Part shown: one piece after another, positions 2,128 through 46,777 of the stretch
Layout of the letters: each line of letters opens with the position of its first letter
Position numbering within the stretch: the first letter of the stretch is position 1
Source: an uncultured Candidatus Saccharibacteria bacterium
Lineage (GTDB): Bacteria; Patescibacteriota; Minisyncoccia; Minisyncoccales; CAYJUL01
Direction of reading: 5' to 3'
DNA: 64,000 nucleotides
NCBI GenBank assembly: GCA_964401295.1
Contig: CAYNXX010000001.1
Location: 137,076 to 201,075 of the forward strand
Notes under the pieces: model-generated
What the model saw: the letters and a program-made list of their open reading frames with translations, nothing else
The model's database searches: none
Told to the model about the DNA's origin: nothing
Program-made: the position numbers and the translations under genes

Positions 2128-2952
2128 TTATCCGGCGGGTTTTATTTCATAAGAATTTTGAGCCAAAGCATAACCTTCTCTTATTTTTTGCAGGTCAATC
2201 AATTCTTGGGCGATTTCTTTATAAGCTCGGGTGGCCAAGGACGCCGGCGCATAATGGAAAATAGTTTTGCCAGCCCGTGGCGCTTCGGCCAAAGCTACCG
2301 AACGCGGAATTACCGTACGAAAAACATAGCCTGGAAAATTTTTCCTGACCTCCTGCGCAACTTCTCTTGAAATCTTGTGGTGACTATTATACATCGTTAG
2401 CACTGCGCCGGCTATATTTAAATTGTGACCAAAATTATTTCTTATTAAACTTATCGTTGATAAAAGCTGGTTTAAACCTTCAAGCGCAAGGTATTCACAC
2501 TGCACCGGAACTAAAACATCGTTCGCCGCAGATAAAGCATTAATGGTCAAAAGTCCTAGACTCGGCGGAGAATCAATAAAAATAAAATCATAATCCTCGC
2601 TTATTTTTTCCAGAGTCTTGGCGAGTTTCGTTTCGCGCTCATGTACTGATACGAGTTCCACCTCCGCGCCGGCCAAATCCTGCGTTGAGGGCATAAGATC
2701 ATAGCCGAAAAACGGAGTCCTGCGTACCACGGCTCTCGGATTTACGTTGCCCAAAAGCGCATGATAGACGGAAATTGGAATATTTTTCGGATGAAAGCCC
2801 AAAGAATAAGTGGCATTGGCTTGGTGATCAAAATCAACCAGCAAAACTTTTTTCCCGAGCGACGCTAGAAAAACGGGCAGATTAACGCTTAAATTGGTCT
2901 TACCGACGCCTCCTTTATTGTTGCAAATCGCTATTATACGCGCCATTACCAA
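2128..2952 (-). CDS. parA: Chromosome partitioning ATPase ParA (Soj)
   Basis: Deviant Walker A motif KGGVGKT (IAICNNKGGVGKTN) is present. The parA-parB operon order is conserved. The true start is probably MARIIAI at 2946. Confidence 0.9.
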   Translation of the reverse strand: MVMARIIAICNNKGGVGKTNLSVNLPVFLASLGKKVLLVDFDHQANATYSLGFHPKNIPISVYHALLGNVNPRAVVRRTPFFGYDLMPSTQDLAGAEVELVSVHERETKLAKTLEKISEDYDFIFIDSPPSLGLLTINALSAANDVLVPVQCEYLALEGLNQLLSTISLIRNNFGHNLNIAGAVLTMYNSHHKISREVAQEVRKNFPGYVFRTVIPRSVALAEAPRAGKTIFHYAPASLATRAYKEIAQELIDLQKIREGYALAQNSYEIKPAG

Positions 2953-3013: not shown

Positions 3014-3100
3014 GCCCGGGTGGCGAAACTGGCAGACGCACAGGACTCAAAATCCTGCGAGAGCAATCTCATGAGGGTTCAAGTCCCTCCCCGGGCACCA
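3014..3100 (+). tRNA. tRNA-Leu (anticodon CAA), class II with long variable arm, CCA encoded
   Basis: Acceptor GCCCGGG pairs with CCCGGGC. U8 is present. The D-arm GGCGAAACUGGCAGACGC is Leu-like. The anticodon stem is CAGGA/UCCUG with loop CUCAAAA. A long variable arm and T-arm GAGGGUUCAAGUCCCUC are present. The sequence ends A-CCA. Confidence 0.85.
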
Positions 3101-3348: not shown

Positions 3349-3663
3349 ATGGACCATAGCAACCTTGCAGGTCAGAAGTATTCCCACAGTCAATGTGTTC
3401 ACGGCAGGTGCCTTGACCACGGACCGGAGTGGGAAAACGTCGGTGAAGTGCGGCGCGAGCCCAATCCAGGAATCTTCGGTAAGAAGACCTCCGGGATGAA
3501 CCGTTGCTGCGGCAAGCCGATGACGCAGTACAAAGAAGTGCAGACGCAGCGGTGTCGTAAATGCGGACGTACCAAAGATCACATAACGAACTACCGCCTC
3601 GTATTCTGCCTCTGCTGCGGCTACCACTTCACCAAGTCCGGCAGCTCATTATTTACCCCCTAA
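3349..3663 (+). CDS. Small Cys-rich hypothetical protein P1 (104 aa, 10 Cys, CxxxxC / CC / CxxC / CxCC pattern); visibly GC-rich compared with the host
   Basis: The ORF has a consensus promoter, a strong RBS and an intrinsic terminator. Its G+C is visibly above the ~35-40% of flanking genes. It lies between the tRNA-Leu-associated repeat copy A and the hairpin motif m1. Confidence 0.6.
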   Translation: MDHSNLAGQKYSHSQCVHGRCLDHGPEWENVGEVRREPNPGIFGKKTSGMNRCCGKPMTQYKEVQTQRCRKCGRTKDHITNYRLVFCLCCGYHFTKSGSSLFTP

Positions 3664-3680
3664 TGGTCGAGATGTAACAA

Positions 3681-3722
3681 GGGGGTTGCGGGAGAAATCT
3701 CGCACCCCCTTTTTCTTTTTTT
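3681..3722 (+). terminator. Rho-independent terminator of P1 (GGGGGUUGCGGGA-GAAA-UCUCGCACCCCC, GNRA loop, followed by a U-run)
   Basis: The hairpin and T-run (TTTTTCTTTTTTT) were read directly from the sequence. Confidence 0.75.
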
Positions 3723-3782
3723 CGTTTTTGAAATTATCCGGTTCGCGGCGAAGCCACTCATTTTTTGTGGGAGTTTCCTCGC

Positions 3783-3816
3783 CGCTGTAGGCGGCGAAAT
3801 GCATTTGAACTATTTT
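3783..3816 (+). repeat. Motif m1: short GC hairpin (cgccgcTGTAGgcggcg) plus the tail aaatgcatttgaactattttaag. It is related to inverted motif m2 at 42868-42901.
   Basis: About 29 of 33 nt are identical to the reverse complement of 42868-42901, and the upstream hairpin is analogous. Both sit at the tRNA-distal end of a GC-rich islet. Confidence 0.6.
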
Positions 3817-3876
3817 AAGAATTGGGTACTACAAAGACGGGCAGAAAGCCCGTCTTTGTGACCGCTCAAATACTAG

Positions 3877-4404
3877 TTATTTAAACCGCCTGACAAGGCT
3901 TGGCGCAAAAGAAACAACCAACCATCCGCTCAAAATACCTATAACCGCTCCCCCTACAACATCTGTCGGCCAGTGGACGCCCACGAAAACGCGGGCTAAA
4001 GCTATTGCACTGCTGGCAAGCAAAAATGCAACGCCGGCTTTTTTGTTATAAAGATAGAAAACAGTTGAGAGCGCGAAATAAAAAGTGGCGTGGCCAGACG
4101 GAAAAGAATCATAAAGTGGTTCCCTACCGACGAGCGGAATGATATTTCCGTTAACAAACGGTCTTGGACGCGCGATAAAAAAACGTATAATCTCGGCAAC
4201 AATAAATCTTGAAAAAAATGCGGCAATTAATCCCTGCCATACCATCGGCCAGTATTTTTGGGCACGAAGCAAAAGAAAAATCGGTATGGTTAAAAGTAGT
4301 GCGTATCCCGCATATGTGGCGAAAAAAATAGCCACCGTGTCTAACCAGATATATTTCAATGTAAATCCGTTGATTAGCCTAAAAAGATATTGATCTATGG
4401 TCAT
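3877..4404 (-). CDS. PAP2-family phosphatase (undecaprenyl-diphosphatase / PgpB-like) membrane protein
   Basis: PAP2 signature motifs are present: RPRP, SFPSGHA and GVHWPTDV. Confidence 0.8.
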   Translation of the reverse strand: MTIDQYLFRLINGFTLKYIWLDTVAIFFATYAGYALLLTIPIFLLLRAQKYWPMVWQGLIAAFFSRFIVAEIIRFFIARPRPFVNGNIIPLVGREPLYDSFPSGHATFYFALSTVFYLYNKKAGVAFLLASSAIALARVFVGVHWPTDVVGGAVIGILSGWLVVSFAPSLVRRFK

Positions 4405-5561
4405 ATTTTTAGATTTCCATTAGCCTTTATTTTTTCTAGATAGGATTTTTTGCCAGCTTTTTGCGCGAAATATCCGGCTATTGCGGCCATAACTCCGTTA
4501 TCTGTGCAAAACTGCGCTTCGGGAGCAACAAAAGCAATATCTGGCGATTCGTTTTTCAATCTCTGTTCCAGTTGACGCCTTAATTCATTGTTGGCCGCAA
4601 CTCCGCCGCCGATTATCACCATCTTAGCATTATAATTTCTAGCCGCGCGGATTGTTTTTTTAACCAAAACGTCAATTATGGCCTGCTGAATTTCAGAGGC
4701 CATTGCCCAAATATAATTCTTGGACATTCTTATTTCCTCCGGCTGCGTTCGCCAATTATACAAAACTGCAGTTTTAAGTCCGGAAAAGCTAAAATCACAA
4801 TCCTGACTTTTGATCATCGGCCGCGGCAATTTAAGTTTCTCTTTATATTTATATTCGGCGCGTTTAGCCGCTTCTGCTATTGCCGGCCCTCCTGGATAAC
4901 CTAGTCCCAAAAGCCGCGCAGTTTTGTCAAAACATTCACCGGCCGAATCGTCCCTCGTCTCACCTATAATCTTATAGCTTCTCGGCTTTTTTGCCAAAAT
5001 CAGCATCGTATGTCCGCCCGACACAAGTAGGCAAATAAAAGGAAATTTATATGGCAGATCCGACAGATTAAGACAGCTCGTTAGAAGATGCGCCTCCAAA
5101 TGATTAACCGCAAAAATTGGTTTATTCCACCAAATTGCTAAAGTTTTCGCAAAATTTATGCCGGTCCAAAGCGCCGGCTCAAGCCCTGGACCATTGACTA
5201 CTGAAATTAAATCTATTCTTGGCACGCCATAATTTTTTAAAAACTTAACCGTACTGGCATAAAATTTTGGCTCTCTTCCCAATATTTTTTTAACTTTTTG
5301 ATTTTCGGATTGTAATTTTGACTTTTGATTTTTGGGTTTTGATTTTAACAATCCCGATAGACTCAAGGCCTTCTTTAATACCGGCACAAGATTGCGTTGA
5401 TGTTCTCTTTTCGCCAACATCGGCACAACACCGCCCCATCTCATGTGAATTTTCACCTGCGAAGAAACGATATCGGAAAGAATTTTAAAATTGTCGTTTT
5501 CTGAATCAACAATCGCTATTGCGGTTTCATCGCACGAAGTTTCAATGCCGAGTATTTTCAT
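4401..5561 (-). CDS. tsaD: tRNA N6-adenosine threonylcarbamoyltransferase TsaD (Kae1/Gcp family) with a lysine-rich insertion
   Basis: The N-terminus reads GIETSCDETAIAIV. The HxxH-type metal site and the C-terminal ASKAC fold are consistent with TsaD. Confidence 0.85.
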   Translation of the reverse strand: MKILGIETSCDETAIAIVDSENDNFKILSDIVSSQVKIHMRWGGVVPMLAKREHQRNLVPVLKKALSLSGLLKSKPKNQKSKLQSENQKVKKILGREPKFYASTVKFLKNYGVPRIDLISVVNGPGLEPALWTGINFAKTLAIWWNKPIFAVNHLEAHLLTSCLNLSDLPYKFPFICLLVSGGHTMLILAKKPRSYKIIGETRDDSAGECFDKTARLLGLGYPGGPAIAEAAKRAEYKYKEKLKLPRPMIKSQDCDFSFSGLKTAVLYNWRTQPEEIRMSKNYIWAMASEIQQAIIDVLVKKTIRAARNYNAKMVIIGGGVAANNELRRQLEQRLKNESPDIAFVAPEAQFCTDNGVMAAIAGYFAQKAGKKSYLEKIKANGNLKI

Positions 5562-6748: not shown

Positions 6749-7027
6749 TTAGCCGTAACTCGACTTATCATTTAGTGCAGTTTCGAAACGCTCCCGTTCA
6801 CTACCCATCCAATAGCCGAAAATTGCCATAAAATCTTTAAAGCAAGCGTCGCAAAGCTCAATATATCCTTCTATCTCTGGCTTAATAAAACCGTGGGCTA
6901 TTAAAGAAAAAAGTTGCCTTATATGACGCAAAATCCAACTCCAATAACCTTCTTTGCCGACAGTTTTTATTCTGTTGCCCGCGCCCCATTCGTTTATCCT
7001 TACCCCACAGCGCATGCAGTTTCTCAC
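6749..7027 (-). CDS. Small zinc-ribbon-like hypothetical protein (CMRCG...CDAC)
   Basis: The ORF overlaps the downstream gene start by 4 nt (operon-like). No recognisable family was found. Confidence 0.4.
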   Translation of the reverse strand: MRNCMRCGVRINEWGAGNRIKTVGKEGYWSWILRHIRQLFSLIAHGFIKPEIEGYIELCDACFKDFMAIFGYWMGSERERFETALNDKSSYG

Positions 7028-8304
7028 TTTTGCCTCCTTTGTTTTTTAAAATTTTTAAATTGCGAATAAAAAATGGTCTTGTCTTCTACCAAATCTTGCA
7101 CCATAGCATTCGGTCCAATAATACAATACGAACCAATAAGTGCACCGGGCATTAGACTTGCGCCGACTCCGATATGCGATTTTTTGCCGACAATGGCGCC
7201 CAAAGATGCAAGCTCGGTGTTTATTTTCCCTTTTTTAGAATAAGCTCTAACGATTCCTCTGTCAAACCTAACGTTTGCCGTAATCACGCCCGCACCGATT
7301 CTGCAGTCCGAGGAAAAAACCGAATCGCCGAAAAATCCAGAATGGCAATGGACATCATCGCCAAAAGAACTGCGCGCGATTTCGGCATTTGCGCCGATGA
7401 TGCATCTTTCTCCTACATCAACATAATCGCGCAAAAGCGTATTATTTCCAACAACCGTTCCTTTGCCTATATAAACCGGGCCCTTGATAACCGCATTTTC
7501 AAAAATCTTTACCTTCTCGCCGATGAAAACCTTTCCGCTTATGATTGCATTCGGTGCAACTTTCACACTTTTGGCGATAAAATATTTCAAATATTTATCA
7601 AACAGATATTTTTTAATTTCAGAAATGTGCCATGGATATTTTAAAGACGGGCTTTTTGTGCCTTTTTGCAATAACAGCGCTGCCAAATTATGATCTTTTG
7701 TATAGGCCGAGAGGGCTGCCTCAAAATCATATGCGCCGCGTTTAGTTTTTTTATAGACATCAAAAAATCCTGGCTCCAATAGATAAATACCCACTGCTCT
7801 TATTTTTGATGGTTCTTTCCCCGCTTTTGGCTTCTCAACAATCTCAGCAACCTTAGACCCTCTCATTTTTATTATTCCATAAAGCTCGGGTGTTTCCGTT
7901 TCTTGGCCAACGAGCAAGCCTGCGCCGCGCCTGGTAGGATATTTTTTCTTCATTTCCGAAATTATTTCTTCGGCATCTATTCTTGAGGCATTTAAAACAA
8001 AGAATGGACCGGAAAGCAGACTTTTTGCCTGCCATAGGGCATCACCCATACCCCTTGGCTCTTTTTGCGTGACGTAGTGTATCGCCGCGCCGGTCATCGG
8101 ATAATTTTTTATAACGGCTTCGATCTCTCTATTTTTTTCCTGCACGATAATAATATTTTTAATGCCGGCGCGTTTTAAAGCCGAAATTGTATAGTAAATT
8201 AAGGGCTTGCCCATTATTTTGAAAAGGACTTTTGACTGGAAATTTAGCGGCCAGAAGCGCGATGATTCGCCGCCAGCCAGGATTACCGCCGAAATATTTT
8301 TCAT
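7024..8304 (-). CDS. Sugar-1-phosphate nucleotidyltransferase with C-terminal left-handed beta-helix (hexapeptide repeats); GlmU/RmlA-like bifunctional architecture
   Basis: The N-terminus reads AVILAGGESSRFWPL, an NTP-transferase G-loop. The C-terminal half contains repeated [LIV]G-x4 hexapeptides. Confidence 0.75.
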   Translation of the reverse strand: MKNISAVILAGGESSRFWPLNFQSKVLFKIMGKPLIYYTISALKRAGIKNIIIVQEKNREIEAVIKNYPMTGAAIHYVTQKEPRGMGDALWQAKSLLSGPFFVLNASRIDAEEIISEMKKKYPTRRGAGLLVGQETETPELYGIIKMRGSKVAEIVEKPKAGKEPSKIRAVGIYLLEPGFFDVYKKTKRGAYDFEAALSAYTKDHNLAALLLQKGTKSPSLKYPWHISEIKKYLFDKYLKYFIAKSVKVAPNAIISGKVFIGEKVKIFENAVIKGPVYIGKGTVVGNNTLLRDYVDVGERCIIGANAEIARSSFGDDVHCHSGFFGDSVFSSDCRIGAGVITANVRFDRGIVRAYSKKGKINTELASLGAIVGKKSHIGVGASLMPGALIGSYCIIGPNAMVQDLVEDKTIFYSQFKNFKKQRRQK

Positions 8305-9242
8305 AAATGTATTTTAAGTAGTACTCTAGCTAATTTATCCGGATCGTGCCTGACAAAACCTGACTTGCTCAGAAAATTCCCTGCGATAATTTTGAAATTT
8401 TTTTCTTTGAAGTCTAACTTTTTCCATGAAACGAATTGCGCGCCCTGTTTTTCATATTGCTCAATGCGATTTTTAGAAGGTTTTTTGGTATTTAAAATTA
8501 TAGCATCCAAAACCTTTCCTCCCGCATATTTTTCTATAGCGCACACGAAATCTTTAGCAGTAAATCCGTTCGTTTCTCCAAATTTTGTCATTAAATTGCA
8601 GACGTAAACTTTTTTTGCCGGACTTTTACGAACAGCTTTCGCAATGCCATCAACCAAAAAATTTGGAATGATGCTTGAAAAAAGATCGCCTGGCCCTATG
8701 ACTATTAAATCGGCTTTGGCGATCGCCTGCAAAGCTTTTGGATTGGCCGGGCAGTAAGGACTCAACCAAACATCAACTATACGAAGCCATCCATCATGTT
8801 TGGGCACGTCTATATTCGTTTCGCCCTCAATTACGTTTTTATTTTCCAGCTTAGCGAAAAGTCTCGCGTTACCGAAGGTTGATGGAATAACCTCGCCTTT
8901 TACATCCAAAATCCTTTCCGTCTCATTAAGCGCTTTTTGCGGATCGCCATATATCCTAGAGAGTAGATAAATCAAAAGATTGCCAACTGTATGACCCGCA
9001 AACACTCCTTCAGTAAGTCTGAAATTTAAGGCAGTCGTATTTTTTTTAAAGCGCAAAAGCGCAGCAAGCGCCGGCCTTATAGATCCGGCTGGCAGTATAC
9101 CTCGTTCCCTCCGTAAAATACCCGTGGACCCACCATCATCGGCCATAGAAACAACCGCGGATAAATTAACCGGATAGTTTTTGAGACCCGTAAGAACAGT
9201 AAAAGTTCCTGTACCGCCACCGATGACTAAGATATTTTTCAT
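8301..9242 (-). CDS. YvcK / CofD-like (UPF0052) family protein; the start is uncertain (ORF open to 9317, likely start MKNILVIGGGTG at 9242)
   Basis: The motifs VIGGGTG...VVSMADDGGSTGILRRE are characteristic of the YvcK/CofD 2-phospho-L-lactate transferase-like family. Confidence 0.75.
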   Translation of the reverse strand: MKNILVIGGGTGTFTVLTGLKNYPVNLSAVVSMADDGGSTGILRRERGILPAGSIRPALAALLRFKKNTTALNFRLTEGVFAGHTVGNLLIYLLSRIYGDPQKALNETERILDVKGEVIPSTFGNARLFAKLENKNVIEGETNIDVPKHDGWLRIVDVWLSPYCPANPKALQAIAKADLIVIGPGDLFSSIIPNFLVDGIAKAVRKSPAKKVYVCNLMTKFGETNGFTAKDFVCAIEKYAGGKVLDAIILNTKKPSKNRIEQYEKQGAQFVSWKKLDFKEKNFKIIAGNFLSKSGFVRHDPDKLARVLLKIHL

Positions 9243-9269
9243 AAACCCATATATAATAATTTCCATTCC

Positions 9270-9298
9270 TTGACAGGCCACGTCATATTTGTTATTAT
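9270..9298 (+). promoter_or_regulatory. Near-consensus sigma70 promoter (TTGACA, 17-nt spacer, TATTAT) driving the P2 locus
   Basis: Read directly from the sequence. It is divergent from the yvcK-like start. Confidence 0.6.
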
Positions 9299-9332
9299 GG
9301 TCATATCCTTTTAACAATCATAGGGAGGTTAA

Positions 9333-9365
9333 ATGGTCACAAAAAAGAGGAACCATAACTCATGA
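9333..9365 (+). CDS. Leader uORF (MVTKKRNHNS, 10 codons) with a strong SD GGGAGG; its stop overlaps the P2 start (ATGA)
   Basis: GGGAGG lies 7 nt upstream of the ATG at 9333. The TGA at 9363-9365 overlaps the ATG at 9362-9364, an arrangement that suggests translational coupling. Confidence 0.4.
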   Translation: MVTKKRNHNS

Positions 9366-9673
9366 TGGGGAGGGAAATTACTCTCGGTATGTATTGCATG
9401 CGTTGCAGTGATATGCAAACCGTGTATGCGTATTTAAATTTAAATACCGAGGACGATAGCATTATAATCATAGTTGAACCCATAGGGGCGATAGATTTCC
9501 GGACCGGCGACGCCGGACTTACTGAATTTGTCCACCGTTGCGGTGGACCGGTCAAATTTATAAGCCCATATTTTTCTCTTAATACTAAGTGTAAACTGGT
9601 TCCTCAATCTCCGATTGGCATGCCATCGAATCCGCGGCAAAGAGAAGCTTCTCGCCGCGGTGTGGCCATTTGA
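9362..9673 (+). CDS. Small Cys/His-containing hypothetical protein P2 (103 aa; CMRC...HRCGG)
   Basis: The ORF sits in a monocistronic unit between a consensus promoter and a strong terminator. It is moderately GC-rich. The alternative reading of this unit as a ~400-nt ncRNA was considered and not supported. Confidence 0.5.
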   Translation: MMGREITLGMYCMRCSDMQTVYAYLNLNTEDDSIIIIVEPIGAIDFRTGDAGLTEFVHRCGGPVKFISPYFSLNTKCKLVPQSPIGMPSNPRQREASRRGVAI

Positions 9674-9678
9674 CGCAT

Positions 9679-9702
9679 AGGGGGTTAATCCCCCTTTTTT
9701 AT
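9679..9702 (+). terminator. Rho-independent terminator (AGGGGG-UUAAU-CCCCCU followed by a U-run), partly bidirectional with the glmS end
   Basis: Perfect 6-bp GC stem followed by TTTTTT. Confidence 0.8.
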
Positions 9703-9720
9703 TGCGGGACAATCGCGGTG

Positions 9721-11565
9721 CTATTCAACGGTGACACTTTTGGCCAGATTTCTCGGCTTATCCACATCACATCCACGGAGCACGCCTGTGTAATAAGCGA
9801 AAAGCTGTAGCGGAATAATGCTTAAAATCGGCGTCAGCATTTCAAGCGTTTTTGGAATATAAATAACGTCATCGGATATTTTTCCAATTTCATCGTTTCC
9901 TTCGCTGGCAATAGCAATAACTCTTCCATTGCGAGCTTTTATTTCCATAATGTTTGAAATCATTTTTTCGTAAACGCTGTCCGTGGGTGCAATGGCCAGC
10001 GTGGGAAAATTTTCATCTATCAGAGCTATCGGCCCATGTTTCATTTCTCCAGCACCATATCCTTCTGCGTGCACGTAAGAAATCTCTTTTAATTTTAGGG
10101 CCCCTTCCAGGGCTATGGGATAGTTATATTTGCGGCCGATGTACAACATATTATCAAATTTCGCATATTTTTGCGATATTGCCTCTATGTCTCTTGCTTC
10201 GTCCAGCACGGCTTTTATTTTTTGAGGCAGAAATTCCAATTCCTTCGCTATCTCTTCTATCTCCTCCCGATCAATTCTAGAGCGCTGTCTTGCGAAAAAC
10301 AGCGCGAGAAGCACAAATACGGCAATCTGGGAAAGAAATGTTTTTGTGGAAGCGACCCCAATTTCGGGACCGGCATAGTTATAAAGGCCAGCATCCGTTT
10401 CTCTTGCGATAGAAGACCCAATCACATTTACCAAACCAACGGTGAGTACCTTTTGTTTTTTAATGTTACGCAACGCTGCGAGCGCGTCTGCGGTTTCGCC
10501 CGACTGCGAAACCGTTAATAAACATGTATGCTTATCGAATACGGGTTTGCGATTGCGATACCGCAGCTCCGAACTATGCTCTACCTCGGTTGGCATTCCG
10601 CCGTACTCTTCAAGCATGTATTCGCCTACCAAAGAAGAATAATACGAAGAACCGGAGGCAGAAATAATCATGCGCTTAACTTTTCGCAATCGATCAAGCA
10701 CCGGCTCCAGTCCCCCAAAAACACCACGTTGCACCACCATGCGCAAACGCCCCCGCAGAGCGTTCTCTACAACTGATGGCGCCTCAAAAATCTCTTTGAG
10801 CATATAGTGAGAGAATCCCCCCCTGGACGCTTCCTCCCAATCCCAATCAAGCTCAAGGTGTTGCCTTTGAATTTGCTCCCCTGACGCAATGACGGATAGT
10901 GTAAATTTTTCAGGGGTTATCACGCCCATTTCTCCATCTTCAAGATAAACTACCTTTTTCGTATGCGGGACCACTGCGGCTGGATCGGAAGCCACAATAA
11001 ACCCTTCTTTTCCGATTCCGACTAAAAGGGGGCTTGATTTTTTAGCAATAACTAATTTTTCTGGATTTTCCTTTGCTAGAATCGCAAGGGCATACGTACC
11101 CTCTACCAAAGGAAGAGCCCGTACGATCGCTTGTTCAAGGCTATTATCAAAAAATTTTTCTATAAGATGACATAGCACTTCTGTATCTGTTTCTGAATAA
11201 AATTGGTGGCCTTCTTGTTCAAGGTTTTTTCTTAGAGATTTAAAATTTTCCACGATACCATTATGGACAAGATAGATATTTTTCCTGCAATCATAATGAG
11301 GATGGGCATTGGTTTCCGAAACTCCGCCATGGGTCGCCCAACGCGTATGTAAAATAAATGGGCAGCCAGCGAGAGGGGCTTTTAAAAATTTATCTTCCAG
11401 ATTTTTTATCTTACCAACAGCCCTAAGAAGCGAAACTTTCCCGAGGTTCTGATCTAAAACTGCCAAACCCGCTGAATCGTATCCGCGATACTCCAATCGC
11501 TTTAATGCCTCCAAGCCGAGAGAAACGTTTTTATTTTTACCGATGTAACCTACGATACCGCACAT
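9721..11565 (-). CDS. glmS: Glutamine--fructose-6-phosphate aminotransferase GlmS
   Basis: The N-terminus reads MCGIVGY (Ntn amidotransferase Cys2). Two SIS domains are present. Total length is 614 aa. Confidence 0.95.
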   Translation of the reverse strand: MCGIVGYIGKNKNVSLGLEALKRLEYRGYDSAGLAVLDQNLGKVSLLRAVGKIKNLEDKFLKAPLAGCPFILHTRWATHGGVSETNAHPHYDCRKNIYLVHNGIVENFKSLRKNLEQEGHQFYSETDTEVLCHLIEKFFDNSLEQAIVRALPLVEGTYALAILAKENPEKLVIAKKSSPLLVGIGKEGFIVASDPAAVVPHTKKVVYLEDGEMGVITPEKFTLSVIASGEQIQRQHLELDWDWEEASRGGFSHYMLKEIFEAPSVVENALRGRLRMVVQRGVFGGLEPVLDRLRKVKRMIISASGSSYYSSLVGEYMLEEYGGMPTEVEHSSELRYRNRKPVFDKHTCLLTVSQSGETADALAALRNIKKQKVLTVGLVNVIGSSIARETDAGLYNYAGPEIGVASTKTFLSQIAVFVLLALFFARQRSRIDREEIEEIAKELEFLPQKIKAVLDEARDIEAISQKYAKFDNMLYIGRKYNYPIALEGALKLKEISYVHAEGYGAGEMKHGPIALIDENFPTLAIAPTDSVYEKMISNIMEIKARNGRVIAIASEGNDEIGKISDDVIYIPKTLEMLTPILSIIPLQLFAYYTGVLRGCDVDKPRNLAKSVTVE

Positions 11566-31387: not shown

Positions 31388-31837
31388 ATGCCCGTCCTGG
31401 CCGAAAATAAAAAAGCCCGCTTCAACTACGAAGTACTGGAATCGTTTGAAGCCGGTATCGTTTTGAAGGGCCAAGAAGTAAAATCAATAAAATCGGGGGG
31501 TATCGCCCTTGCCGGCTCTTATGTTGTTGCCCGCGGCGGCGAAATATGGTTCGTGGGCGCTAATATTCCGCCCTACCAGCCCAAAAATACAACGGCAAAC
31601 TACGATCCCCAGCGGCCGAGAAAATTACTTTTAAAGAAAGAGGAAATAAAGTATTTATTTGGCAGATCCCAGCAGCGAGGCTTGACTTTGGTACCATTAA
31701 GGTTATATACTAAGCAGGGCAGAATAAAATTGGAATTCGGGATCGCCAGACACAAAAAGAAATTCGGAAAAAAACAAACCATTCAAAAAAGGCAGACGCA
31801 AAGAGAAATAGAAAGAGAGCTAAAAACGCGGGGATGA
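31388..31837 (+). CDS. smpB: SsrA-binding protein SmpB
   Basis: The N-terminus reads KKARFNYEVLESFEAGIVLKGQEVKS. Total length is 149 aa. Confidence 0.95.
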   Translation: MPVLAENKKARFNYEVLESFEAGIVLKGQEVKSIKSGGIALAGSYVVARGGEIWFVGANIPPYQPKNTTANYDPQRPRKLLLKKEEIKYLFGRSQQRGLTLVPLRLYTKQGRIKLEFGIARHKKKFGKKQTIQKRQTQREIERELKTRG

Positions 31838-32173
31838 CACAGTTTCGATAGAAGAACTTTTTAAAACATGCGGGCCGAGGCCGATCAAAGCCTCGTTAAA
31901 ATTTGATCAACTAAATAAGTGCCAACTTATTTAACCAACCAGCTTACGCTTTAGCATAAGCCATTTGAAATAATAGATTCTCGATAATTATTTCGGGTGC
32001 AAACCAATCGAGATCGGCGGTTTCTTTGATCTGGAGCGCTGCCGAAAACAACAGATCAAGATGGCGGGCGTTTCGTCCGCTTTCAAGTCCGCCATTTTCC
32101 AAAGTGGACTACACTCGTAGAACTGTTTTAAAAAACATTCTAGACGCGGGGGCAGAACCCGCCATCTCCACCA
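31830..32173 (+). ncRNA. ssrA: tmRNA (ssrA), ~344 nt; tag ORF GCC...TAA encodes (A)NLFNQPAYALA
   Basis: The 5' end GGGGAUGACACAGUUUCGAUAG resembles the E. coli GGGGCUGAUUCUGGAUUCGACGG. It forms a perfect 7-bp acceptor stem with the 3' end ...CAUCUCC-A-CCA, including a G3:U70 pair. A tRNA-like 3' arm GACGCGGGGGCAGAACCCGCC is present. The tag reading frame runs 31921-31959 and ends ...YALA-TAA. The RNA starts within the smpB stop codon. Confidence 0.8.
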
Positions 32174-41894: not shown

Positions 41895-41958
41895 ATAAAA
41901 ATAAAAATTAATACCAAAATCCGGATGCCAGATTCATGATATTTTTGTGCCGTGCAAT

Positions 41959-42219
41959 TTATACTTTGTAAACCCTGTAGTCCGGTCTGACTTTTTGATC
42001 AACCTTAAGGCCGATGGATTCTCCGGGCTTGGCCGATTCCACTTTCTTGTGATCCACTTCCATGGACTCAATGGTTTGTATAAAATCGGTTTCGCCGCCC
42101 ACTAGACGTATGCGCTCGCCAACGTTCAGTTTTTTTGAAAGCTCCAAAACTGCCACGCCGATGTTCGCAAAATAATGTGTTACTTTGCCAATTAATTCTC
42201 CTTGTATTTCTTCCGGCAT
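41959..42219 (-). CDS. Hypothetical small protein (86 aa)
   Basis: ORF only. It is slightly GC-richer than the host and may belong to the islet. Confidence 0.3.
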   Translation of the reverse strand: MPEEIQGELIGKVTHYFANIGVAVLELSKKLNVGERIRLVGGETDFIQTIESMEVDHKKVESAKPGESIGLKVDQKVRPDYRVYKV

Positions 42220-42292
42220 GATAAATAAATTACTTATTATACGACCTTTAACTGATTTTTATTATATCATCTTTGAAATAATTAAAAAGGAG

Positions 42293-42544
42293 CTAGTCGC
42301 TCCTTCTGCCATTCTTTGATTTGAATATTGCATACGCAATATTTAGCGTAGCTTTGTAGTCTTCTTTAGAAAGGCGCAGCTGCTCTTGATGGTACAGTCT
42401 CGCACCATCTTCTCGTACGGCGCCGCACTTTACTATTCTACCATTCCTCTCTATAAACGAGATGGATAGCGGGGGTATCGAAATAACCACCATCTGAACT
42501 TTTTGATTTATTCTTTCAACGCGGGTAACTTTAATCTGCGACAA
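42293..42544 (-). CDS. Hypothetical small protein (83 aa)
   Basis: ORF only. An SD-like ggagg lies upstream. Confidence 0.3.
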   Translation of the reverse strand: MSQIKVTRVERINQKVQMVVISIPPLSISFIERNGRIVKCGAVREDGARLYHQEQLRLSKEDYKATLNIAYAIFKSKNGRRSD

Positions 42545-42867
42545 CTCTGCCTCCTTTCATTATTTGCTAACTGCCACGAAATGGCATGGCAGATCGAAAT
42601 CCTCCGCGGGGCTATGAAAACATGCTTGCCCAGGGCGTTTGGGTCGGAAAATTCTTTGACAAGATATTTGCGTCATGCCAGTTATAATTCCTCAGACCGC
42701 CGAAGCTGACGGTGATTCGACCATAGTCAACAGCAACAAAAAACATTTTGTACCTCTTTTTTAAGCTACAACCTGTTAAATATACCAGATTTTATCTTGA
42801 AAGTCAAGAATAAAGACCTGTGCGACGCGCTGGGCTTAAAATATGGCGCAGAATGCTTGAAATAATT

Positions 42868-42901
42868 CGAATGCATTTCGCCGCCGCAAACGGCGGCGAA
42901 A
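42868..42901 (-). repeat. Motif m2: inverted copy of m1 (hairpin cgccgcCGTTTGCggcggcg plus tail aaatgcattcgaattatttcaag)
   Basis: The reverse complement aligns to 3783-3816. It is adjacent to the P4 terminator hairpin at ~42907-42935 (GCGGAAG...CUUCCGC + UUUUU on the minus strand). Confidence 0.6.
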
Positions 42902-42946
42902 CAGAAAAAGCGGAAGTCGAACGGCTTCCGCTAGTCTATAGCAGGG

Positions 42947-45165: not shown

Positions 45166-46769
45166 ATGAAAGAGCTCAAACCAAAAACTCAATGCATTCT
45201 CTATGCTCGGAAATCAACCGAGGAGGATGATAAGCAAGTGATGAGCATAGAAGCTCAACTGTTTGAATTGCGCGAATTTGCCGAGCGAGAACGCATTGAG
45301 ATAATCCGTGAGTTCACGGAAGCGGAAAGCGCAAAGAAACCCGGACGAGAGGAATTTGCCAAAATGCTTTCCTTAATTGAAATAAGCAAAAAGCCGCTCG
45401 GCATTTTGGCATGGCACCCCGATCGTCTCGCCCGCAATAGCGTGGACGGCGGCAGAATCATTTATCTCGTGGACACCGGAGCTATTGCTTCTTTGCGCTT
45501 TCCGCAATTTTGGTTTGAGCCAACTCCGCAAGGGAAATTCATGTTGCAAGTGGCGTTCGGGCAATCAAAGTATTTCTCGGATAACTTGGTTGAAAATGTG
45601 AAGCGCGGTATCCGCCAAAAACTCAGCCGCGGCGAATGGCTGACGCTCGCTCCTTTGGGATATGTGAACAACTACAAAATACGGAACATTGACCCGCACC
45701 CTACTTACGCAAAAGTCATCAAGCGAGCGTTTGAAGAGTACGCCACGGGAAAATATACGCTCGTCGGTTTAGCGGAGTTTTTAGCGGGGCATGGCGTTGT
45801 TCAGAAAAAAGGAACGCCACTTGCAAAAGTTTCCGTCGTGAAAATGCTTACTAACCGAGCATATCTAGGATTTGTAAAATTTCATGGCGAATACCACGAC
45901 GGAAACTTTGAGCCGATTCTTTCCCCGACACTGTTTGAAGCAGTACAGAAAGTATTGAAAAGCAAGCAAAGACCGCGCAAACAGAAAGAGCGATACGATT
46001 TCCCTTTTACGCAGTTTGCGCGGTGCGGCGAGTGCGGAAATATGATTACGGCGCAGTATGCCACCAATCGCTGGGGCACGCGCTATACTTACTACCGTTG
46101 CACCAAGAAAAGCGGGCATTGTAGCCAGCCGTATCTTTCCGCCGATACGCTCGCCGCCCAAGCGCAAACCCTGTTTCAATCAGTGTCGCTTCCTCTCGCG
46201 GAAATTGAGGTTATGGAAAAGCAGATTGACACACGGGAGAAAGAAGAAATTTCCGCGAGAGGAGATGTTGCCCAAAATCTTAAAGCAAAACTCAAGAGGC
46301 GCAGGAGAAGCTAGGCCGGCTTGTCTCGCTCTATTTGGACGACGACATCGAACGAGAACTCTATCTCACAAAGAAAGACGCGCTCCTTCGCCAAAAAGCC
46401 AAGCTGGAAGAAAGTTTGGGAGATTTTGGGCAACAGGGAAAGAATCAGCTCGAACCCTTGCGGAGTTTCGTTTTGTCCTTGAGAGAAGCGGAAAAAGTGG
46501 CGCAAACAAAAAATCACGCCGACTGGCGCAACTTTTTCCGTTCGCTCGGCTCTAACCCCGAGATCAAGGATAAAACGCTTTCAATCAACTGGGGCGAACT
46601 CTGGGATTTTACGGCGAAAACAAAAGCGGATTTTGCCCTGCGGAGCGAGCCGTCCGCCGCGCGGACGGCGAGCGGAGCAGTCAATTCCGACAAAGTTAGT
46701 TTTGGTGCGCCTACGAGGATTCGAACCCCGATCTCGAGCTCCGGAAGCTCGTGTTCTATCCATTAAACT
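45166..46769 (+). pseudogene. Large serine recombinase (resolvase/invertase N-domain, recombinase domain, zinc ribbon, coiled-coil) with a -1 frameshift near 46294-46296
   Basis: The N-terminus reads CILYARKSTEEDDKQ...SIEAQ, containing the catalytic Ser. The C4 zinc ribbon reads CGECGNMITAQY...YYRCTKK. Frame 1 ends ...KAKLKRRRRS* at 46314. The coiled-coil continues in frame 0 (..KEAQEKLGRLVSLYLDDDIERELYL...). Restoring one A in 'ctcaagag' joins the two. Combined length is ~534 aa. Confidence 0.75.
46591..46708 (-). repeat. Right terminal inverted repeat (copy C) with a 46-nt GC-rich palindromic insertion (GCCGUCCG-CCGCG-CGGACGGC)
   Basis: See copy B. The outer end begins at the GCACCA 3' end of tRNA-Arg. 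Confidence 0.9.
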
Positions 46770-46777
46770 ATGGGCGC
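46703..46777 (-). tRNA. tRNA-Arg (anticodon CCG), CCA encoded
   Basis: The reverse complement is GCGCCCAUAGUUUAAUGGAUAGAACACGAGCUUCCGGAGCUCGAGAUCGGGGUUCGAAUCCUCGUAGGCGCACCA. The fold is a cloverleaf with anticodon loop UUCCGGA and a T-loop UUCGAAU. There is one C:A mismatch in the acceptor stem. Confidence 0.8.

Follow-up and report, generated by a model that had tools for sequence, protein, structure and literature searches.

The locus studied here lies in a 64-kb window, by which we mean the whole stretch of DNA that was analysed, and occupies the 478-nt stretch (9243-9720) between the start of a yvcK-like gene and the stop codon of glmS, as had been indicated in a preliminary description of this DNA. 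The yvcK/glmR-like gene (CofD family, PF01933, E 2.6e-80) extends from 8301 to 9242 on the minus strand, and glmS, with its GATase and two SIS domains, from 9721 to 11565 on the same strand. A transcription unit is read from the plus strand between them (9270-9702). Since yvcK and glmS are both on the minus strand, the earlier statement that this unit sits between convergent genes is wrong: it diverges from yvcK and converges with glmS, whose stop codon is located 21 nt past the T-run that ends the unit. The 103-codon ORF of the unit will be called X, as well as its product. The order of the minus-strand cluster is leuS, glmS, X (on the plus strand), yvcK, an NTP-transferase/hexapeptide (GlmU-like) gene, a gene for a 92-aa CxxC...CxxC protein and a BadF/BcrA-type ATPase gene, yvcK being the first of the last four. 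The neighbours of X are genes of the UDP-GlcNAc pathway. We searched for a repeat or mobile-element origin and found no second copy of the unit in the 64-kb window; the unit is chromosomal and belongs to a housekeeping cluster, not to a mobile element. It had also been presented as richer in GC than its host. However, its GC content (0.442 versus 0.421 for the window) corresponds to the 70th percentile of 400-nt windows, and only its 3' third reaches 0.50-0.53.

The unit begins with a sigma-70-type promoter (9270-9298, plus strand) made of a -35 box TTGACA (9270-9275), a 17-nt spacer that includes a TG dinucleotide (9290-9291) and a -10 box TATTAT (9293-9298). In a simple consensus scan, which may miss CPR promoters, this site matches 11 positions out of 12 with the TG extension, and just four plus-strand promoter-like sites of at least 11/12 are present in the 64-kb window. 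Transcription is predicted to start at about 9305. The 5' leader (9305-9332) contains a Shine-Dalgarno sequence GGGAGG (9323-9328) placed 4 nt before the ATG of a 10-codon leader ORF, or uORF (MVTKKRNHNS, 9333-9365), the TGA of which (9363-9365) overlaps the ATG of the 103-codon ORF (9362-9364) in the form ATGA. The latter ORF (9362-9673, plus strand), with its CMRC and HRCGG motifs, is preceded by a sole Shine-Dalgarno-like element, GAGGA, 11 nt before its ATG. It is followed by an intrinsic terminator AGGGGG-TTAAT-CCCCCT and a T-run (9679-9700), i.e. a hairpin at 9679-9695 and then six T, which would act on the plus strand only because no T-run follows the hairpin on the minus strand. The promoter, the GGGAGG-driven uORF, its overlap with the main ATG, the 103-aa ORF and the terminator had all been announced in the preliminary description, and our analysis bears them out. 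We also considered a leader-peptide transcription attenuator and rejected it, as the uORF stop codon overlaps the main ATG and no terminator/antiterminator alternative exists between the leader ORF and the main gene, the only T-run terminator-like site being 3' of the main ORF.

We then asked whether X has relatives. No Pfam match was found for the 103-aa protein, and a word-indexed search of 5.8 billion proteins with this ORF alone returned only the protein itself; the same type of search with a four-sequence profile returned only the query members. We then selected, among metagenomic sequences, the YvcK proteins nearest to that of the window (62-74% identity) and read their contigs for synteny. 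Four further genomes (L051, L053, L054 and L056) display, directly upstream of yvcK and on the opposite strand, an ORF of 79 to 93 codons, located at 2456-2731, 3714-3953, 3661-3924 (minus strand) and 3805-4086 of the respective loci. These ORFs share only 22-30% amino acid identity with the window ORF, and pairwise blastp between the latter and the L051 ORF gave 1e-7. Seven positions, C12, C15, V21, H58, C60, G61 and G62, are invariant in all five members, and the common pattern can be written h-x-h-x-C-x2-C-x3-x-(T/S)-V ... H-(R/K)-C-G-G-x-h-(K/R/E)-(L/F), with a different spacing in L054 (H-x3-C in place of H-x-C). X adjoins yvcK in all five loci and glmS in four of them, L051 having another neighbour.

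With a three-sequence profile, an exhaustive HMMER search through 1.84 billion cluster representatives yielded only four credible matches, namely the three query members and a protein, P0126 (E 8e-6), that maps to the equivalent locus in L056. As P0126 was found by the profile and only afterwards located at the same place, it provides an independent confirmation of both homology and synteny. Two giant repeat proteins in that scan were discarded as artefacts matching a PGGG-like stretch, and so were tau-repeat matches of the same PGGG type in the PDB sequence profile. A five-sequence HMM scored all members from 1e-24 to 1e-38 and detected nothing else, whether in the rest of the window or in some 60 loci. 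No family member and no equivalent gap was found in 47 yvcK loci of GTDB species representatives, all of them from Patescibacteria/Parcubacteria-type MAGs with a YvcK identity of at most 61%. The family, previously unannotated, was encountered in no more than five metagenomic genomes, which form a narrow clade of Parcubacteria (CPR/Patescibacteria). In L054, the public annotation places a 91-aa ORF at 3540-3815 (minus strand), which is read in the wrong frame and overlaps glmS at its end; the true member was left uncalled, and for this reason searches of protein databases miss it.

When the 478-nt gap was compared with 49 related loci using blastn and nhmmer, self matches only were obtained. 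Because the loci show no DNA similarity, the conservation is at the level of the protein: ORFs of 79 to 103 codons remain open in five genomes and the putative ligands are kept while the DNA has become unrecognisable, which together shows a protein-coding gene whose core is under selection. The preliminary description had listed a small protein among its options and had made the case depend on the ORF being conserved in related genomes; the ORF is indeed conserved, in amino acids and in position, in four of them. That this protein may also be regulatory and highly expressed, as proposed there, is suggested by the near-consensus promoter and by the neighbouring genes. Altogether, we consider it very probable that the 9270-9702 region is an independent, monocistronic protein-coding gene of the plus strand, encoding a small Cys/His zinc-ribbon-like protein of an unannotated family.

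The expression signals of the homologues point in the same direction. Each of them has a strong Shine-Dalgarno sequence 4-8 nt before its ATG. A TTGACA-17-TAxxxT promoter is found upstream of the gene in L053 (12/12), L054 (11/12 with TG) and L056 (10/12), and TTGACA-17-TATAAG can be read from the sequence of L051. A terminator was scored in the window and in L053, and L051 and L054 display GC-rich hairpins ending in a T-run. On the other hand, the uORF is absent from the four homologous loci, all of which show a direct Shine-Dalgarno-ATG arrangement; this element, whose conservation in relatives had been considered worth examining, is therefore a feature of this genome only. In L053, L054 and L056 the yvcK start, ATGTCAA, is reverse-complementary to the -35 hexamer. 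The -35 box thus overlaps the yvcK start in these three loci, and the two genes stand head-to-head with no spare DNA between them.

Some observations concern yvcK itself. In L050, L053, L054, L056 and L059, YvcK starts with ATGTCAA and carries a basic N-terminal extension of about 10 residues (MSRLAKKKQK...). In the corresponding stretch of the window (9243-9277, minus strand), CTGTCAA is present but out of frame, and YvcK starts as MKNILVIGGG with its ATG at 9242. No Shine-Dalgarno sequence precedes yvcK in the window or in L050, L053, L054, L056 and L059, and TATA-rich boxes end 6-8 nt before the yvcK ATG in several loci. These boxes and the absent Shine-Dalgarno sequence are hints that translation of yvcK might be leaderless or coupled.

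The structure of X was predicted with AlphaFold2 from four sequences, a first model being in agreement with the second. The model (mean pLDDT 72.5) contains seven beta-strands, with pLDDT values of 77-91 for residues 1-40 and below 55 after residue 80. The family can be described as a conserved Cys/His beta domain of about 68 residues followed by a low-confidence tail which, past residue 70 or so, varies in length and sequence and is mostly basic. The two pairs of putative metal ligands, invariant across the five members, are both predicted at turns: C12 and C15 at the beta1/beta2 turn, between strands 4-12 and 18-28 (pLDDT 77-91), and H58 and C60 at the beta5/beta6 turn, between strands 54-58 and 63-67 (pLDDT 72-83). 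Such a layout is typical of a zinc ribbon, and we therefore call X zinc-ribbon-like, with a putative Cys3His site and a predicted all-beta core of about 65-70 residues. The protein is not hydrophobic and the all-beta prediction includes no hydrophobic helix.

Similarity searches did not assign X to a known family. Nothing significant was obtained from Pfam, NCBIfam or a PDB sequence profile over the family; none of the five members was matched by PADLOC, and PHROGs gave no significant match (best E 0.11, for one member). One member aligned with Pfam Ribosomal_S27e at E 0.12. The Foldseek search against the PDB produced nothing below E 0.3, with eS27, RPA and PH-like beta-sandwiches among the noise, so that the term zinc ribbon is based on the motif and on the predicted secondary structure. 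A parallel can nevertheless be drawn with small zinc-ribbon proteins such as eS27 (Pfam Ribosomal_S27e) and the RPA70 zinc ribbon, since X is a small all-beta protein with two putative metal-ligand pairs (CxxC and HxC), each at the turn of a predicted beta-hairpin. X differs from them by its Cys3His putative ligands, by about 42 residues of extra beta-strands between the knuckles and by an invariant GG after the last Cys, and neither its sequence nor its structure gave a significant match (Pfam E 0.12 for one member; Foldseek E>0.3).

The mRNA of this unit is predicted to fold in an unusual manner. A 14-bp helix, P1, joins 9328-9341, which holds the last G of the uORF Shine-Dalgarno sequence and the uORF AUG, to 9661-9674, which holds the main-ORF stop codon (9671-9673); it is present in both the MFE and the centroid structures. 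A second helix, P2, pairs GAGGAACCA (9347-9355), where the only Shine-Dalgarno-like element of the main ORF (GAGGA) is found, with TGGTTCCTC (9597-9605), the 9 nt being 100% complementary. The mean pair probability is 0.98 for P1 and 0.98 for P2. A large part of the unusual stability comes from these two helices. The fold z-score of the transcript (9305-9702) is -5.8, repeat shuffles giving -5.5 to -6.9 and the overall range being about -5.3 to -6.9. This value equals that of the tmRNA of the same window (-5.8) and is outside the background given by 60 stretches of 398 nt taken at random from these 64 kb (-0.46 +/- 1.24, minimum -3.9). The main ORF without the leader reaches only -2.6, and the leader/3' duplex alone is matched by about 4% of shuffles (p about 0.04), i.e. 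it is only marginally beyond them. The homologous mRNAs have z-scores of -0.3 (L051), -5.55 (L053), -2.3 (L054) and -1.2 (L056) and share no common architecture. The strong fold belongs to this genome, and separately to L053, not to the family, and it lends no weight to a non-coding RNA.

We propose that, in this genome, ribosomes would load at the strong Shine-Dalgarno sequence of the uORF, terminate at the AUGA overlap and reinitiate there on the main ORF. Since the main ATG has only GAGGA at 11 nt, while the Shine-Dalgarno sequence of the uORF and its 4-nt spacing are of the type used by the real starts of the homologues (4-8 nt), termination-reinitiation appears to be the most economical reading. 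The Shine-Dalgarno-like element of the main ORF would be buried in the 9-bp long-range helix P2, and in P1 the main stop codon would be paired to the uORF AUG; the full-length mRNA may therefore adopt a closed form that is poorly translatable. In thermodynamic terms the fold is real, and a limiting effect on the translation of the complete mRNA is plausible.

What could be the role of X? In Bacillus and Listeria, GlmS is under the control of YvcK/GlmR, which binds UDP-GlcNAc (PMC7525490, PMC6171935, PMC10128056), and the locus described here resembles the GlmR (YvcK)/GlmS/YvcJ module of Firmicutes by the genomic association of the enzyme gene glmS with yvcK/glmR, which encodes the UDP-GlcNAc-sensing activator. 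YvcJ of Firmicutes differs from X in being a P-loop protein and not a zinc ribbon, and among the GlmR papers listed in our search none brought up a small zinc-ribbon protein as partner of either GlmR or GlmS. On the basis of the conserved gene neighbourhood, which is where any interaction of X with the module is deduced from, our best reading is that X could be an accessory zinc-ribbon protein acting on or with the GlmS-GlmR module. The more precise proposal, that X would bind or regulate the GlmS-GlmR(YvcK)-GlmU-like UDP-GlcNAc module in a zinc-dependent manner, is put forward as a tentative one, with a chance that we judge real but clearly short of even.

The comparison of relatives qualifies this proposal. 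In the close relatives L052, L055 and L059, glmS and yvcK are separated by 10-24 nt and X is missing. In L050, the slot is occupied by a different 85-aa Cys/His ORF on the opposite strand (4685-4942, minus strand; C...HH...CxxCxxC), and in L058 by a different 176-aa ORF (2328-2858, minus strand; CxxC...CxxC) with a weak 'double zinc ribbon' match (E 0.07). Both ORFs were considered as family members and rejected, no homology being detectable. The glmS-yvcK slot thus seems to turn over zinc-finger-like small genes. As X is absent from close relatives or replaced by unrelated Cys-rich ORFs, the cell can do without it, and what ties it to the pathway may be no more than its position.

The same cluster contains a second unannotated C4 small protein. 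This 92-aa ORF (6749-7027, minus strand; MRNCMRC...LCDAC...) lies between the NTP-transferase/hexapeptide and the BadF/BcrA-type ATPase genes and is kept in place in L050, L051, L052, L055, L056 and L058 with 31-60% identity. Its invariant residues are C4, C7, C59, C62, W31, R34 and H35, and it has no Pfam family. A kinship between this CxxC...CxxC protein and X was discarded, the hhalign probability being 1.3%.

Several other explanations of the unit deserve to be weighed. Besides coding, it could act in cis, as a strongly transcribed and highly structured plus-strand RNA or through its own transcription, and so regulate the minus-strand glmS-to-yvcK operon, either by transcription running against it or by pairing in antisense. 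We regard this dual function as unlikely. The fold is as strong as that of the tmRNA and exceeds all 60 background windows, and L053 has a comparable value. The unit is inserted where glmS and yvcK are contiguous in L052, L055 and L059; on the minus strand of the gap, the scan gave neither a terminator-like site after glmS nor, by consensus, a promoter-like site before yvcK, and yvcK has no recognisable promoter or Shine-Dalgarno sequence of its own. Moreover, the overlap of the -35 box with the yvcK start codon in L053, L054 and L056 means that a yvcK mRNA endowed with a leader would overlap the unit in antisense. Together with the missing minus-strand terminator and promoter, this overlap suggests that transcription of X may interfere head-on with read-through from glmS to yvcK. 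However, the structure is not conserved in L051, L056 and L054, the window ORF taken alone is less stable, the scan may miss CPR promoters, and yvcK could be leaderless, given the TATA-rich boxes that end 6-8 nt before its ATG in several loci. SgrS/SgrT and SR1/SR1P are dual-function sRNAs that encode small proteins. X is similar to them as a short structured transcript, running from promoter to terminator, that encodes a small protein beside sugar-metabolism genes, but its structure is unconserved and its coding part fills nearly the whole transcript.

One could also imagine that protein and RNA are parts of a single, clade-specific device controlling UDP-GlcNAc synthesis in CPR bacteria, in which a zinc-ribbon protein would bind GlmR/YvcK or GlmS while its folded mRNA, strongly transcribed head-on in a glmS-yvcK operon that is contiguous elsewhere, would throttle read-through into yvcK and take the place of the glmS ribozyme or of the GlmY/GlmZ logic of other bacteria. 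We hold this combination for quite unlikely.

A different view is that X is a decaying or neutral ORFan and that short Cys-rich ORFs come and go at the glmS-yvcK junction without serving any function. The patchy presence of X agrees with it, as do the three unrelated Cys-rich ORFs observed in the slot across relatives, the slot being empty in three others, and a divergence which is very fast in comparison with that of YvcK (22-30% versus 62-74% identity). The seven invariant positions, which comprise all four putative metal ligands, and the near-consensus promoter and Shine-Dalgarno sequence conserved across five genomes argue in contrast for purifying selection on the core and make neutrality improbable in our opinion.

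It had also been suggested that the region is a structured RNA. Taken strictly, this would mean a purely non-coding RNA in which the 103-codon ORF is accidental. The z-scores of -5.5 to -6.9, the closing helix and the multi-branch architecture are what one would expect of such an RNA, and the fact that the protein matched only itself among 5.8 billion is compatible with it. However, Rfam 15 at gathering thresholds detects nothing in the unit, and nothing appears on either strand of 9200-9760 at E<=10 with permissive filters, so that no known non-coding RNA covers the region; the homologous loci have no common fold and no DNA conservation, and in each of them an ORF with its own Shine-Dalgarno-ATG is open and keeps the Cys, His and Gly residues. 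This conservation at the amino acid level largely refutes the non-coding reading, which we consider very improbable. What stands of the suggestion is that the mRNA is thermodynamically exceptional in this genome.

For the rest of the window, the Rfam matches at gathering level are limited to the tmRNA (31830-32173, plus strand, 108 bits) and two tRNAs (3014-3097, plus strand; 46706-46777, minus strand), and RNase P, SRP and 6S RNA were not detected in the 64 kb. The longest stretch without an ORF of at least 90 aa (41895-42946, 1052 nt) contains minus-strand ORFs of 83 and 86 aa; a sub-threshold match to the cyano-S1 leader is found at 42845-42915 (minus strand; 21 bits, E 0.5).

Finally, mok/hok of plasmid R1 combines a translationally coupled leader ORF, an mRNA fold-back and a membrane toxin, and the present unit resembles it, as far as sequence and thermodynamics go, by a short uORF with a strong Shine-Dalgarno sequence that overlaps a main ORF whose own is poor or occluded and by a closing 5'-3' helix hiding the start region. 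Nevertheless, the toxin-antitoxin-like pair of the preliminary description, here a leader and main ORF forming a coupled toxic pair silenced by the 5'-3' fold-back, is scarcely credible, given that the uORF occurs in none of the homologues and the helix is not conserved in them, that the product looks soluble and all-beta and has neither the hydrophobic helix of a membrane toxin nor a PADLOC, Pfam or PHROG match, that no antisense promoter was found in the unit and no antisense RNA is evident, and that the locus is a chromosomal housekeeping cluster.

The mRNA of X resembles a structured non-coding RNA thermodynamically (z about -5.5, tmRNA-like) and yet it codes for a protein, which calls for caution in ncRNA screens of intergenic DNA that rely on fold stability. 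The genomes of CPR/Patescibacteria abound in small ORFs that lack annotation and that gene callers treat unevenly, as illustrated by the L054 member, for which a wrong-frame ORF was called. Small proteins restricted to one lineage are frequent among CPR bacteria, and X is one more: an unannotated, fast-evolving and patchily retained small protein in a UDP-GlcNAc gene cluster. Its fixed position beside glmR and glmS makes it a candidate partner, open to experiment, for the GlmS-GlmR checkpoint in the regulation of cell-wall precursor synthesis in these organisms.
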